A DNA stretch of 64,000 nt from a phage. Of this stretch, positions 3,580 to 36,917 are shown piece after piece. The translations under genes and the position numbers were made by a program. Under the pieces are notes generated by a model that saw only the letters and a program-made list of their open reading frames with translations, was not told the DNA's origin and did not search any database. Location: the sequence record PX994957.1, one strand, 5' to 3'. Each line of letters starts with the position of its first letter. Within the stretch, counting starts at the first letter, position 1.

Positions 3580-3655
3580 TGGTCGAGGCAGTAGGGATCG
3601 AACCTACGACCTAGGACTTAGAAGGTCCTTGCTCTTCCTTCTGAGCTATGCCCCG
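3580..3655 (-). tRNA. tRNA-Arg (anticodon UCU)
   Basis: hand-folded cloverleaf: acceptor CGGGGCA/TGCCTCG, anticodon loop CTTCTAA, T-loop TTCGATC, encoded CCA. Confidence 0.85.
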
Positions 3656-3659
3656 TAAT

Positions 3660-3735
3660 TGGGGTGACCGATGGGAGTCGAACCCATGACTACGAGAATC
3701 ACAATCTCGAGTTCTACCAACTGAACTACGGCCAC
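3660..3735 (-). tRNA. tRNA-His-like (anticodon GUG), no encoded G-1
   Basis: cloverleaf: acceptor GTGGCCG/CGGTCAC, discriminator C73, anticodon loop TTGTGAT, T-loop TTCGACT, CCA encoded; nucleotide -1 is U. Confidence 0.6.
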
Positions 3736-3849
3736 ATTAATACCTACTCCAACAATCAAGATGTCTTCACACGAAATTAAGAGAAGAGTGATCAGTTCAA
3801 CCCCTATAATCGCGTCAAGTAGATATTAATGTGACAGTTGTCACAAATT

Positions 3850-3924
3850 TGGCGGACGTGATAGGATTCGAACCTATAACCAATCGCTTAACAGGCGATC
3901 GCTCTGCCATTGAGCTACACATCC
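3850..3924 (-). tRNA. tRNA-Asn (anticodon GUU)
   Basis: cloverleaf: acceptor GGATGTG/CACGTCC, anticodon loop CTGTTAA, T-loop TTCGAAT, CCA encoded. Confidence 0.8.
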
Positions 3925-3928
3925 AAAT

Positions 3929-4015
3929 TGGTGGGGAGTGGTGGAGTCGAACCACCCGAGTCGCAATGACAATGAATTTACAGTCCACACCGCTACCTCT
4001 ACGGGATAACTCCCC
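3929..4015 (-). tRNA. tRNA-Tyr (anticodon GUA), long variable arm
   Basis: acceptor GGGGAGT/ACTCCCC, anticodon loop CTGTAAA, type II variable arm, T-loop TTCGACT, CCA encoded. Confidence 0.75.
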
Positions 4016-4027
4016 TAATTCATAATT

Positions 4028-4102
4028 TGGTGGCCCTGGGTGGAATTGAACCACCATCTGGCGATTATGAGTCGCTTGCTTGAACCTTCCAGCTACAGGG
4101 CC
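4028..4102 (-). tRNA. tRNA with CAU anticodon (Ile2 or Met)
   Basis: acceptor GGCCCTG/CAGGGCC, anticodon loop CTCATAA, T-loop TTCAATT; Ile vs Met cannot be decided from sequence alone. Confidence 0.7.
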
Positions 4103-4103
4103 T

Positions 4104-4179
4104 TGGTGCTGATTGACGGAATCGAACCGCCGACGTCCTCATTACAAGTGAGGTGCTCTACCTACTGAGCTAAATCAGC
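4104..4179 (-). tRNA. tRNA-Thr (anticodon UGU)
   Basis: acceptor GCTGATT/AATCAGC, anticodon loop CTTGTAA, T-loop TTCGATT, CCA encoded. Confidence 0.85.
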
Positions 4180-4185
4180 AAAAAC

Positions 4186-4275
4186 TGGCGGAGGCGATAG
4201 GATTTGAACCTATGAGTCGCCGGAGCGACTGCCGGTTTTCAAGACCGGTGCATTAAACCACTCTGCCACGCCTCC
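4186..4275 (-). tRNA. tRNA-Ser (anticodon UGA), long variable arm
   Basis: acceptor GGAGGCG/CGCCTCC, anticodon stem-loop CCGGT-CTTGAAA-ACCGG, T-loop TTCAAAT. Confidence 0.85.
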
Positions 4276-4281
4276 AAATAT

Positions 4282-4932
4282 TTATATATTGTTAATTTGA
4301 TTTAGAATTCTTTTTGCTTGAGTATGACTTACGCCAATATGCTTAGCATATTTAGATAATTCACCACGCTTAGAAAAATCATATAATTTAGAAATTTCTA
4401 TTCTTCTTTTTCTTTCATCCGCAGAAACTTTTGCTTCGTTTGCTTTTGCTATTTTACGTTTAGCTTCTTGAGAATGAGTTTTACCAGCAAATCCATTCTT
4501 CATTAATCCATTTGAAGACCATCCTTTTAATTTTCCGTTAGAATGTGCCTTTTTAACACCCAATGAAATTAATTCGCGTTGCTGATCTGTCATAGGATAA
4601 TTATTTATATGGTCCCATCCACCTTCACCTCCAAGTTTTAAATTATACACATCTGGTCTATTTAAAAACTCTTCTGTGACAATATTTTTCTCAGCTTCAA
4701 GCATAGATTCTTTATCATCAAAATACTCTAATATTTCTTTAGAAAAATTTTCTATACCATATTTATCTTGGGCTCTTTTTAATAATTTACCAGAACCCAT
4801 ATATCCATCATCTAAATTTTCGGTAGAATGCACACCAATATAAATTTTATTATTAATTTTATTTGTTATTTTATAAAGATAAAAATGCATATCAGTCCCT
4901 AATAAAGAACTGAGCGTCTCACGACGAGTCAT
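4282..4932 (-). CDS. segB: GIY-YIG homing endonuclease (SegB-like) within the tRNA cluster
   Basis: 216 aa; N-terminal GIY-YIG motifs (YLYKITNKINNKIYIGV ... YMGSG); basic C-terminal DNA-binding-like tail; true start may be internal Met at 4890. Confidence 0.8.
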   Translation of the reverse strand: MTRRETLSSLLGTDMHFYLYKITNKINNKIYIGVHSTENLDDGYMGSGKLLKRAQDKYGIENFSKEILEYFDDKESMLEAEKNIVTEEFLNRPDVYNLKLGGEGGWDHINNYPMTDQQRELISLGVKKAHSNGKLKGWSSNGLMKNGFAGKTHSQEAKRKIAKANEAKVSADERKRRIEISKLYDFSKRGELSKYAKHIGVSHTQAKRILNQINNI

Positions 4933-4936
4933 AAAT

Positions 4937-5010
<74 letters not shown>

Positions 5011-5015
5011 AAATT

Positions 5016-5102
5016 TGGTGCGAGAAGTGGGACTCGAACCCACAAGGAAATCATTCCGCAGCATTTTAAGTGCTGTGCCTTTACCAATTTGACCATTCTC
5101 GC
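5016..5102 (-). tRNA. tRNA-Leu (anticodon UAA), long variable arm
   Basis: acceptor GCGAGAA/TTCTCGC, anticodon loop CTTAAAA, T-loop TTCGAGT. Confidence 0.85.
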
Positions 5103-5103
5103 G

Positions 5104-5176
5104 CTGGGAATAAAGGACTCGAACCTTTGCATCTAGCAGTCAAAGTGCTATGCCTTACCAACTTGACTAATTCCCA
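5104..5176 (-). tRNA. tRNA-Gln (anticodon UUG), CCA not encoded
   Basis: acceptor TGGGAAT/ATTCCCA, anticodon loop CTTTGAC, T-loop TTCGAGT. Confidence 0.8.
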
Positions 5177-5273
5177 ATTATTAACAAAGGCTCTCAAACA
5201 AGAACCCTTGATGATAGAGGGTATTAATCAGTGCGGTATGAGTTAATAATAACAAATAATTCTTAAAGCATAT

Positions 5274-5561
5274 TTACCATTTATGATAATACATATTTAC
5301 GATGCATTCAAGACCCAAAGGATTCTTGAAAATATCATATTCAAGAGGACCTTTTTCTGTTTCAATAAAGAAATCAAAATTTACTGTATTAAATTTACGG
5401 TCTTCCTTCACTAATTTAACTTGAGAAGATGAACGGTCAACATAAACCTTTTCAACTTCAAAACATGTTAAAACGCCATAATCATCAATCAAGGCTTTAG
5501 CCGCGTCTTGATCATATTTATATCCATTTTCAATGGATGATACTTTAGCATAAAGAATCAT
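5274..5561 (-). CDS. hypothetical protein
   Basis: 95 aa ORF, last gene of a tightly packed three-gene unit. Confidence 0.45.
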   Translation of the reverse strand: MILYAKVSSIENGYKYDQDAAKALIDDYGVLTCFEVEKVYVDRSSSQVKLVKEDRKFNTVNFDFFIETEKGPLEYDIFKNPLGLECIVNMYYHKW

Positions 5562-5563
5562 TA

Positions 5564-5944
5564 TCAGCCTTCATCAACAATAGTATGCGTATTGGCATTT
5601 ACAATTTGCCACCAATCAAAGCGATTAGAACCATACATCGGTTTGTTTTCATTTTCTTTGATAATATCACGGAGTTCATCTTCGGTAGCGGCTTTCGCGA
5701 TTAAATCAGCATATCCACCACGAGGATAATAATTATCACCTGCAAAAAGTAAAAAGTTTGGTTTAATATTATTAAACTCTTCAAGAGTAATAACTGTTCC
5801 ACCAGGTTGAACAATATCTACATAACTATATCCTAATTTTTGAGCAGCATCTACTGCTTCAAGCAGGGTATCATGAGCCCATCCAATTTGGCAATCTGGC
5901 TTTTCAGATGGATTAGCCTGATAATCTGCATATACTTTATACAT
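5564..5944 (-). CDS. hypothetical protein (start set to Met with AGGTGA SD)
   Basis: 126 aa from ATG 5942-5944; the track ORF extends to 5983 through a less likely upstream start. Confidence 0.45.
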   Translation of the reverse strand: MYKVYADYQANPSEKPDCQIGWAHDTLLEAVDAAQKLGYSYVDIVQPGGTVITLEEFNNIKPNFLLFAGDNYYPRGGYADLIAKAATEDELRDIIKENENKPMYGSNRFDWWQIVNANTHTIVDEG

Positions 5945-5945
5945 T

Positions 5946-6131
5946 TTACTCACCTTTAGAAATTTTATCCATAACGATAGCAATTAAACCAATTAAAAAT
6001 GCTACTACAAGTGAAAATACATTTTCTGCTGTAGTTAATAATCCGCATATAAATCCAACAAACATTGAAAAACTAAAAGCGGAAGCAGAAATTGCAATAG
6101 CAACATTTCGAATTAATTCACAGCGTTTCAT
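5946..6131 (-). CDS. small predicted membrane protein (two hydrophobic helices)
   Basis: 61 aa from ATG 6129-6131 with GAGGAG SD; hydrophobic segments AIAISASAFSFSMFVGFICGLL and VVAFLIGLIAIV. Confidence 0.45.
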   Translation of the reverse strand: MKRCELIRNVAIAISASAFSFSMFVGFICGLLTTAENVFSLVVAFLIGLIAIVMDKISKGE

Positions 6132-6159
6132 TTTATTCTCCTCAGTAGTTGATAGGGTA

Positions 6160-6189
6160 ATAGTATCACTACTAAAACCCCGTGTAAAC
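6160..6189 (-). promoter_or_regulatory. T4-type early promoter with stem-loop (PeSL-like module)
   Basis: minus GTTTAC (6184-6189) N18 TACTAT (6160-6165); inverted repeat agtagt/actact; 32-nt core gtgtaaacaactttgtgaaattattttaaatc shared with copy at 6513-6544. Confidence 0.55.
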
Positions 6190-6201
6190 AACTTTGTGAA
6201 A

Positions 6202-6459
6202 TTATTTTAAATCTTCTAATCGTTTCTTCATCTTAGAACCATTTTTAGCGATTTCTCCTGCGTCAGAGCATAATGCTAAAAGTGCTTTAACTTTAGTTTG
6301 GTCTCCTTTAAAAGACGAAGGATCGACTGCAGCAGCAAGTTCTTTAATACGAGAGAAAAGACGCTCAGCTTCAGCTAAAGCCATTCCAAGCTTTACTTCC
6401 ATACCATGAGAAGATTCAGTGATAATAGTTTCTGTAGCAAACTCTTTATAAGTTTTCAT
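6202..6459 (-). CDS. candidate internal head protein (IPI-locus analogue) with capsid-targeting-sequence-like N-terminus
   Basis: 85 aa; N-terminus MKTYKEFATETIITE closely resembles T4 CTS MKTYQEFIAE; sits where ipI lies in T4 (between tRNAs and 57B). Confidence 0.55.
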   Translation of the reverse strand: MKTYKEFATETIITESSHGMEVKLGMALAEAERLFSRIKELAAAVDPSSFKGDQTKVKALLALCSDAGEIAKNGSKMKKRLEDLK

Positions 6460-6490
6460 TTTATTTTTCCTAATTAATTTTGATGAGGTA

Positions 6491-6520
6491 ATAGTATCAC
6501 TACCTCATCAGTGTGTAAAC
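6491..6520 (-). promoter_or_regulatory. T4-type early promoter with stem-loop (PeSL-like module)
   Basis: minus GTTTAC (6515-6520) N18 TACTAT (6491-6496); perfect 10-bp inverted repeat tgatgaggta/tacctcatca at 6481-6510. Confidence 0.55.
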
Positions 6521-6532
6521 AACTTTGTGAAA

Positions 6533-7229
<697 letters not shown>

Positions 7230-7230
<1 letters not shown>

Positions 7231-7955
7231 TATAGTACCTTTAGTGTATTTTTAATTTTAGAAAAAAGTTCTTCAAGAGAACCATCGTTTGTAATTACTA
7301 AATCACCATCACGAATTGGCAATCCAGCTTCTGTAATATGTGTATCATTGGATTTTTGACCAGGACGAACTACATGAATTACTGTAGCACCCATCGCCCT
7401 AGCCGCATCCATTTCATGATCTTGACGAGTATCAGGAACGATATAATAATCATAACCTGAGTTAAATTTATCAAGATAATCTAAAGCAAATAATTTTACC
7501 CAGTACATGCGGTCGAAGTTATTAACAATCAAATCCGTACCTAGGGCTTGCATCAGACGACGGACTGACCATTGATCTTCAATATTATTTATAACGTCAA
7601 TAATCTTGTTAAATGCTACGGAATTAACTGATTCTTGTCCTTCGTCATCAAAAACAAACACACCCTTAATTGGGCTTTTACCATTAAGATAGCAAAATGC
7701 TTGTTCCATAATCGTGATTACTTCTAATTTAGTCAGATTTAAATTAGTCTCACGATCATAGTCAATTCCTTCAAACTCTTTACGAGTTAAGCAAGGATAG
7801 TCAGTGTTTGCTGCAAATACTCCCCATGCATAAGCCAATGCATCCTTAATAGGACCAGCAAGTTGATATTTAACTGCAGAATAATTGCTCATGATAAAAT
7901 CAGCAGTAGTATCTTTTCCACTACGCTTTACACCGCTTAAAAAGATTAATTTCAT
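7230..7955 (-). CDS. 1: gp1 deoxynucleoside monophosphate kinase
   Basis: 241 aa from internal Met (MKLIFLSGVKRSGKDT P-loop); track ORF includes 13 extra upstream codons. Confidence 0.9.
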
Positions 7956-35014: not shown

Positions 35015-35439
35015 TGATTCTAATCCCTGAAACTCATGAATTAGTTCTCGAGAATGTCGAAGCACTTATTCCTGAAGCACAGGGTCGCTTTGACGAGTTG
35101 TCTTCTGCTTTAAATAAAGACGATATAAATAAAATTATCGAGAATATGCTTGATGATGAAACTGATTTAGCGGTTGCATTAGCTTCTATTAATGAAAATA
35201 TGCCGTTAAATGAATTCATCGTTAAACATGTTTCTGCCCGTGGTGAAATTACTCGCACTAAAGATCGCAAAACCCGCGAACGTAATGCATTTCAAACTAC
35301 CGGGTTGTCTAAAGCAAAACGTAGACAAATTGCTCGTAAAGCTACCAAAACGAAGATTGCCAATCCAGCAGGTCAATCTCGTGCTCAGCGTAAGCGTAAA
35401 AAAGCTCTTAAACGCCGTAAAGCATTAGGATTAAGCTAA
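35014..35439 (+). CDS. 68: gp68 prohead core protein
   Basis: 141 aa, basic C-terminus, synteny. Confidence 0.85.
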
Positions 35440-36077
35440 TGAATGAACCCCAATTACTAATTGAAACTTGGGGTCAACCTGGCGAAATTATTGATGGCGT
35501 ACCAATGCTTGAATCTCATGATGGAAAAGACTTAGGTTTAAAACCTGGTTTATACATCGAAGGAATATTCATGCAAGCAGAAGTCGTCAATAGAAATAAA
35601 CGTCTTTATCCAAAACGTATATTAGAAAAAGCGGTAAAAGACTATATTAATGAGCAAGTTTTAACTAAACAAGCTCTCGGAGAATTAAATCATCCTCCAC
35701 GCGCTAATGTTGACCCGATGCAAGCCGCTATCATTATAGAAGATATGTGGTGGAAAGGAAATGACGTATACGGACGAGCTCGTGTTATTGAAGGTGACCA
35801 TGGTCCTGGAGATAAATTAGCAGCTAATATTCGTGCCGGATGGATTCCAGGAGTTTCTTCTCGTGGATTAGGTTCATTGACTGACACAAATAAAGGTTAT
35901 CGTATCGTAAACGAAGGATTCAAATTAACTGTAGGTGTTGATGCAGTATGGGGTCCAAGTGCTCCAGATGCATGGGTAACTCCTAAGGAAATTACAGAAT
36001 CACAGACGGCGGAAGCCGATACAAGTGCCGATGACGCCTATATGGCTCTCGCAGAGGCCATGAAAAAAGCGTTATAA
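35439..36077 (+). CDS. 21: gp21 prohead core protease
   Basis: 212 aa, synteny between 68 and 22. Confidence 0.9.
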   Translation: MNEPQLLIETWGQPGEIIDGVPMLESHDGKDLGLKPGLYIEGIFMQAEVVNRNKRLYPKRILEKAVKDYINEQVLTKQALGELNHPPRANVDPMQAAIIIEDMWWKGNDVYGRARVIEGDHGPGDKLAANIRAGWIPGVSSRGLGSLTDTNKGYRIVNEGFKLTVGVDAVWGPSAPDAWVTPKEITESQTAEADTSADDAYMALAEAMKKAL

Positions 36078-36107: not shown

Positions 36108-36917
36108 ATGCTTAAAGAACAACTGATTGCCGAAGCGCAGAAAATTGATGCTTCCGTTGCTCTTGATAGTATTTTCGAATCAGTTAATATTTCTCCGGAA
36201 GCAAAAGAAACTTTCGGCACTGTATTCGAAGCTACCGTCAAGCAGCACGCCGTTAAATTAGCTGAATCTCATATCGCTAAAATTGCTGAAAAAGCAGAAG
36301 AAGAAGTAGAAAAAAATAAAGAAGAAGCAGAAGAAAAAGCTGAGAAGAAAATCGCTGAGCAAGCTTCTAAATTCCTTGACCATCTTGCAAAAGAATGGCT
36401 CACTGAAAATAAATTAGCAGTAGATAAAGGTATCAAAGCCGAACTGTTTGAATCCATGCTTGGTGGATTGAAAGAGCTCTTCGTTGAACACAACGTTGTT
36501 GTTCCAGAAGAATCAGTTGATGTTGTAGCTGAAATGGAAGAAGAACTGCAAGAACATAAAGAAGAATCAGCTCGTCTGTTCGAAGAACTCAATAAGCGTG
36601 ACGCATATATCAATTATGTGCAGCGTGAAGTGGCATTGAGCGAAAGTACTAAAGATCTGACTGAGTCTCAAAAAGAAAAAGTCTCTGCTCTGGTCGAAGG
36701 TATTGATTATTCAGATGCATTCTCAAGCAAATTGAGTGCCATCGTAGAAATGGTGAAGAAATCTAATAAAGATGAAAGCACTATTACTGAGAGTATAAAT
36801 ACTCCTGATACTGAAGCAGCCGGACTGAATTTCGTCACTGAAGCTGTAGAAGATAAATCTGCACAAGGTGCAGAAGATATTGTAAGTGTATATGCGAAAG
36901 TCGCATCTCGTTTCTAA
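36108..36917 (+). CDS. 22: gp22 prohead core scaffold
   Basis: 269 aa, Glu/Lys-rich helical protein. Confidence 0.9.
   Translation: MLKEQLIAEAQKIDASVALDSIFESVNISPEAKETFGTVFEATVKQHAVKLAESHIAKIAEKAEEEVEKNKEEAEEKAEKKIAEQASKFLDHLAKEWLTENKLAVDKGIKAELFESMLGGLKELFVEHNVVVPEESVDVVAEMEEELQEHKEESARLFEELNKRDAYINYVQREVALSESTKDLTESQKEKVSALVEGIDYSDAFSSKLSAIVEMVKKSNKDESTITESINTPDTEAAGLNFVTEAVEDKSAQGAEDIVSVYAKVASRF
36794..36801 (+). promoter_or_regulatory. T4 late promoter TATAAATA inside 3-prime end of gene 22
   Basis: TATAAATA about 135 nt upstream of gene 23. Confidence 0.55.

Follow-up and report, generated by a model that had tools for sequence, protein, structure and literature searches.

The ip5 internal protein cassette at the trna.4/57B locus: a predicted capsid-targeted protein and its possible host target

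The ip5 cassette and its boundaries

We have investigated the internal protein (IP) locus in a stretch of phage DNA of 64,000 nucleotides (record PX994957.1), referred to here in its entirety as the window. The gene order in this region, tRNA cluster, trna.2, trna.3, trna.4, ip5, 57B, 57A, 1, 3, 2, 4, is that of T4. A preliminary description made from the sequence had proposed an 85-aa ORF with an N-terminus resembling a capsid targeting sequence (CTS) at the position of ipI; the ORF is real, is encoded on the minus strand and lies between trna.4 and 57B, as ipI does in T4. The features of the cassette are:

6202..6459, minus strand: ip5 coding sequence, 85 codons plus stop, ATG start (ORF list and translation)
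6208..6435, no strand: cassette-specific segment of 228 bp without a T4 counterpart (blastn comparison with the T4 locus)
6480..6548, minus strand: upstream copy of a 69-nt direct repeat, an early-type promoter plus stem-loop, including the last codons of 57B (DLK and stop)
6149..6217, minus strand: downstream copy of the 69-nt repeat, a promoter-like element for trna.4, including the last codons of ip5 (DLK and stop)

The ip5 translation, MKTYKEFATETIITESSHGMEVKLG...RLEDLK, with the N-terminal start MKTYKEFATETIITE, is 100% identical to RB51 Ip5 (ACP31062) and 95-100% identical to the proteins of T2, T6, RB70, RB32, RB14 and wV7, the Ip5 clusters of T2 and RB70 (Q38378) being recovered at 95% identity in a protein database search. 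The locus, CTS and flanking elements are likewise shared with these T-even phages. PHROG 3499, 'internal head protein', covers residues 1-85 of 85 (E=3.7e-50), while a Pfam search of the ORF detected no significant family, DUF7890 falling below the cut-off at E=0.08. The Ip5 name is carried in the T2, T6, RB70, RB32 and RB14 records, and the annotation is either Ip5 or 'internal head protein' in T2, T6, RB32, RB14, wV7 and ∼270 phage records. The text of the T6 record states 'Ip5 ... replaces ipI', and an ip6 gene adjoins. Megablast of positions 5200-7300 retrieved 710 phage records, the top matches at 98-99% identity being Sf23, JY01, wV7 and RB51. The window ORF is thus ip5, an allele of the polymorphic IP cassette at the T-even trna.4/57B locus. 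Identity with RB51, the named records, PHROG 3499 and the 269 records carrying close homologues (see below) make it a common, named allele and not the candidate novel internal protein that had been suggested. Nothing of substance sets the window ip5 apart from known Ip5, of which it is an ordinary allele, and the gene and its name, its CTS, its substitution for ipI and the organization of the locus as a cassette have all been recorded before. IP-locus polymorphism and the conserved CTS are dated to Repoila et al. 1994 in later papers (PMC3012670, PMC2839356, PMC12373910), and such a cassette arrangement is also attributed to those authors.

Blastn against T4 revealed 96-97% identity up to position 6207 and again from 6436, with no alignment over 6208-6435, in the place of which T4 has ipI codons 9-95. 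The breakpoints of the swap are the stop codon and the position after codon 8 of the leader, and only the cargo-coding part is replaced relative to T4. The two copies of the flanking 69-nt repeat (repeat family D1) are 86% identical and carry, on the coding strand, a promoter of the T4-early type, TTTACA N17 TACTAT preceded by TG. Upstream of ip5, the promoter-like site at 6519..6491 overlaps a 13-bp stem-loop (6481-6510; -17.4 kcal/mol, z=-5.4); the stem-loop of the downstream copy is weak (z=-1.4). The repeat overlaps the 3' ends of 57B and ip5, so that DLK terminates the two proteins alike. T4 ipI has the same promoter/stem-loop element on both sides, in SholemSchwarzbard, where ip5 and an ip6-like gene are in tandem, the two are bracketed by three repeat copies, and promoter annotations made by the depositors of phage Lutter fall at the corresponding positions. 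The flanking repeat was also considered as an intrinsic terminator and rejected, as no terminator-like site was detected by scanning and no U-run follows the hairpin.

A second cassette, ip6, was observed between ip5 and trna.4 in T6 and SholemSchwarzbard (L003 2491-2724, L008 990-1223). In SholemSchwarzbard it encodes 77 aa beginning with the leader MKTYQEFIAE and is bracketed by a further repeat copy. ip6 is absent from the window, having been lost or never present.

This organization, in which the recombination boundaries around a variable ORF are marked by a flanking promoter and stem-loop repeat, is like that of the PeSL mobile regulatory cassettes of T4-type phages. IP-locus elements have been called PeSL-like (Arbiol et al. 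2010, PMC2839356; Comeau et al. 2014, PMC4122927), but are analogues and not homologues of the RB49/phi1 PeSLs, having a T4 early promoter and AT-richer stems (PMC2839356). We propose that ip5 is exchanged, between phages and between both IP loci, by recombination within the conserved CTS codons and the flanking early-promoter/stem-loop repeats.

A pattern search detected no canonical late promoter adjoining ip5 on its upstream side, the nearest upstream match to the consensus being:

7586..7593, minus strand: late-promoter consensus TATAAATA, inside gene 1, ∼1.1 kb from ip5 (pattern search)

T4 gene 1 has a TATAAATA match in the corresponding part and T4 ipI is likewise devoid of an adjacent one. 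The site at 7586-7593 may be a source of late read-through of 57A-57B-ip5.

Predicted processing, structure and family range of Ip5

The elements associated with the predicted processing of Ip5 are:

6415..6459, minus strand: CTS, MKTYKEFATETIITE, codons 1-15, with a predicted gp21 site at its end, I-T-E followed by S
6205..6414, minus strand: predicted mature cargo, Ip5*, 70 aa, 7.5 kDa, pI 9.2, all-alpha
35439..36077, plus strand: gene 21, prohead core serine protease (Pfam Peptidase_S77, E=1.5e-111), the enzyme expected to remove the CTS
36108..36917, plus strand: gene 22, scaffolding core protein (Pfam T4_CASP, E=3.1e-90), into which CTS-bearing proteins assemble

The first seven residues of Ip5, MKTYKEF, fit the CTS consensus MKT(Y/F)xEF. 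Across the six frames of the 64-kb window the pattern M[KQ][TM][YF]..F occurs once, at the ip5 start codon, the chance expectation being roughly estimated as ∼0.1. The resemblance of the leader to the T4 CTS noted in the preliminary description is correct, although MKTYQEFIAE, the sequence quoted there, is how T4 IPII and IPIII begin, T4 IPI itself having MKTFKEFTSTTTPVSTITE at its start. BLASTP against IPI, IPII and IPIII aligned only the N-terminus, from residues 1-13 to residues 1-22 of Ip5 (IPI up to residue 26), with single-comparison E values of 0.002-0.005, and detected no significant alignment of the Ip5 body with any of the three. Ip5 is thus not a close IPI ortholog, similarity being confined to the leader, and the earlier impression that the remainder does not look like IPI is borne out. 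Ip5 and T4 IPI (Ip1) nevertheless occupy the same genomic slot, have a related long CTS ending in I-T-E and are similar in mature size and basic charge. Likewise IPII and IPIII are, as predicted for Ip5, CTS-bearing, injected, basic IP-cassette proteins, but in T4 they are encoded at the e-denV locus and have bodies unrelated to that of Ip5.

M1, T3 and F7 are invariant across the Ip5 family, as is E15 in an alignment of nine sequences. The prohead-protease motif L/I-x-E that had been pointed out at the end of the leader is present as I13-T14-E15 followed by S, and such a motif occurs near the leader end in seven of seven aligned members, including the distant P0011 and P0012, although in differing columns: ITE in Ip5, LNE in the RB69 type, LAE in P0011 and LSE in P0012. 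In the variant P0004 a 10-residue leader, MQTYQTFITE, is fused straight to SSHGMEV, a junction from which a gp21 cut after E15 would be expected in the window protein. Cleavage after E15 is thus predicted from the motif, with the placement of the mature end rendered less sure by further L/I-x-E motifs inside the body (LAE at 28-30 and IKE at 38-40), which lie within a confidently predicted helix. The window also encodes portal, gp67, gp23 and gp24, which together with gp21 and gp22 indicates that the CTS-using machinery is present. According to reviews, the CTS alone is enough to encapsidate foreign proteins (PMC3012670).

The mature part is predicted to consist of helices at residues 17-44, 54-63 and 67-83, with AF2 pLDDT >90 for the body and 55-58 for the leader in a model built from only nine sequences. 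It thus differs from IPI*, for which two beta sheets with helices on either side have been reported (PMC3012670), and the mature parts of the two proteins share no detectable similarity. A structure search with the model returned no PDB match and no informative structural match, and the fold as modelled is novel, without a known analogue. The calculated pI of 9.2 is comparable to the 9.0-9.7 of T4 IPI*, IPII* and IPIII*.

Tblastn with predicted Ip5* detected 269 phage records at ≥90% identity and 228 more at ∼54%, the latter being RB69-like Mosigvirus; the corresponding search with IPI* detected 292. The Ip5 body is at least 99% identical in 232 records and its core is conserved also in distant members at 40-54% identity. 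A nine-member HMM searched against 1.84 billion representative proteins recovered five clusters, all members of which begin MKTY or MQTY. For the most distant members, P0011 and P0012 (40-41% identity), sequenced phages yielded no close match. Relatives other than T4-like internal proteins were recovered neither by word-indexed protein searches nor by the exhaustive HMM search.

ORF127c of RB69 is truly homologous to the Ip5 body, sharing its conserved core (54% identity over 61 residues), and its CTS ends in L-N-E followed by A. Unlike ip5 it is not located by 57B but between e and denV, which is the ipIII/ipII locus of T4, and its C-terminus is eight residues longer. Ip5-type cargo is therefore present in both IP loci. 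Three more CTS-bearing ORFs (ORF125, 124 and 123) were observed downstream of denV in the RB69 segment 3698-4692, one annotated as an internal head protein and two as hypothetical.

Role and possible targets of Ip5

In the proposed mechanism, the unprocessed protein would be steered by its 15-residue N-terminal CTS into the gp22 scaffolding core of the prohead, where the gp21 prohead protease would cut after I13-T14-E15. The 70-aa, basic, all-helical Ip5* would remain with the DNA in the head, be injected along with it and act in the cell prior to any phage gene expression. Ip5 is thus considered likely to be packaged, processed and injected. Literature searches combining Ip5 with phage terms returned nothing relevant, no proteomic or biochemical report of Ip5 in virions or of its cleavage was found in the literature searched, and internal proteins are not mentioned in two virion-proteomics studies of T4-like Yersinia phages. 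Once injected, Ip5* would most probably bind and block a host defence protein which attacks incoming sugar-modified hmC DNA. The precedent for this function is provided by Ip1, Ip2 and Ip3, which block one GmrSD-family type IV restriction enzyme apiece, and on the basis of this analogy an anti-defence role is the reading we favour, with some reserve. The neighbouring gene 57B corresponds to Acb1, which fits an anti-defence neighbourhood.

Of the T4 proteins Ip1, Ip2 and Ip3, every one inhibits a GmrSD-family enzyme of its own, with no cross-protection (Silas et al. 2025, PMC12373910). Injected Ip1 (IPI*) acts against the GmrSD of E. coli CT596, and Ip2 (IPII) and Ip3 (IPIII) inhibit GmrSD-ECOR21 and GmrSD-ECOR17, respectively. 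The suggestion in the preliminary description that a different cargo could target a different host defence is thus already the working model of the field. When ip4-10 were assayed against active GmrSD variants, no reproducible inhibition was observed (PMC12373910, Supplementary Fig. 9). The ip5 of that study is assumed to be the Ip5 family described here on the basis of the Repoila nomenclature cited there, the supplement being without a sequence. As only eight active systems of a very diverse family were assayed (PMC12373910), a GmrSD target for Ip5 is still quite plausible. T2 and T6 are still restricted by GmrSD-ECOR21 and GmrSD-ECOR17 (PMC12373910) even though they encode Ip5, so that neither enzyme is a target of Ip5 at its natural dose. 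Given an anti-defence role, the target is split between a GmrSD subtype outside those assayed and something else.

That ip5 encodes an early, cytoplasmic, unpackaged protein, the CTS-like N-terminus being a remnant of recombination, is very improbable. It would accord with the early-type promoter of ip5, the lack of an adjacent late promoter and leader homology to T4 that stops after codon 8, but T4 ipI, which is proven to be packaged, has the same upstream element and likewise no adjacent TATAAATA. Furthermore, the leader is kept in every family member, in both IP loci and across 40-54% divergence, with L/I-x-E near its end in each full-length member, whereas a remnant would decay. If Ip5 is packaged, it could still be a dispensable basic filler of the head, functioning in core assembly or in DNA condensation or ejection, with no specific host target and neutral turnover of the cassette. 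The basic pI, like that of other internal proteins embedded in packaged DNA (PMC3012670), the failure of the published screen to yield an Ip5 target and the tiny, phage-restricted family are consistent with such a role. We nevertheless consider it improbable, since the near identity of the body in 232 records and its fixed core in distant members argue for a specific folded function over bulk charge. The confident, compact model of the body also speaks against a filler, as does the precedent of T4 Ip1-3, which were formerly deemed fillers and all proved to be specific inhibitors (PMC12373910).

More weight, although still short of being likely, is given to the alternative that Ip5 is packaged and injected but acts on a target outside the GmrSD family, candidates being another enzyme that acts on modified DNA, either a nuclease or a glycosylase, or else a sensor by which entry of the DNA would set off abortive infection. 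The screen without reproducible inhibition of the assayed variants, the restriction of Ip5-bearing T2 and T6 by two GmrSD systems and the apparent novelty of the fold all point in this direction. So does phage range, as Ip5-type cargo is found in Tequatrovirus (T2, T6, RB51) and, at 54% identity, in RB69-like Mosigvirus. The two groups carry different hmC sugars, and a cargo distributed across both would argue against recognition tied to a single sugar-specific enzyme. Conversely, all three internal proteins with a known target act on GmrSD enzymes, the eight systems assayed come from a very diverse family, and no result obtained here points to a candidate target of another kind. That Ip5* is specifically an injected inhibitor of a host defence other than a GmrSD-type restriction enzyme is accordingly rated as unlikely. 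If true, the T-even internal-protein arsenal would extend beyond type IV restriction, by way of a small helical fold without a known analogue.

Returning to the favoured reading of Ip5 as an injected anti-defence protein, the remaining interest of ip5 is its target. Ip5 is about as widespread as Ip1 (269 records, plus 228 of the RB69 type, versus 292 for IPI*), and many of the records carrying it are phages of E. coli O157, Shigella and Yersinia. Knowledge of the target would aid host-range prediction and would probably reveal another defence specificity.

Neighbouring genes and the tRNA region

The gene upstream of ip5, 57B (6533-6988, minus strand), matched the anti-CBASS nuclease Acb1 over its full length (Pfam PF23474, E=2.6e-60); in many records it is labelled 'RNA ligase' or hypothetical. 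On the other side of ip5, the ORF list extends trna.4 (5946-6191, minus strand) to a TTG start, giving 81 aa, whereas in relatives the protein is a hydrophobic polypeptide of 61 aa from an ATG at ∼6131 (MKRCELIRN...), labelled 'putative membrane protein' in RB68, Ac3 and T6.

The tRNA cluster (3580-5176, minus strand) contains 10 genes: Arg, His, Asn, Tyr, Met/Ile(CAT), Thr, Ser, Gly, Leu and Gln. tRNA-His, Asn and Tyr are missing from the T4 cluster. Conversely, the window cluster is without tRNA-Pro, which T4 and Sf23 have between tRNA-Ser and tRNA-Gly; in the window this position is occupied by a 216-aa ORF (4282-4932, minus strand), the equivalent of which in RB51 is annotated as a truncated SegB-like GIY-YIG homing endonuclease. 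Relative to the window at about 5180-5270, its nearest relatives Sf23, JY01, Sa45lw and AR1 have ∼500 extra bases, their matches being in two pieces. In the Sf23 segment 1564-2079 the extra bases coincide with a hypothetical gene of 171 aa that separates tRNA-Gln from trna.2. This gene is missing at that spot in the window, RB51 and T4 and marks another point of insertion or deletion.
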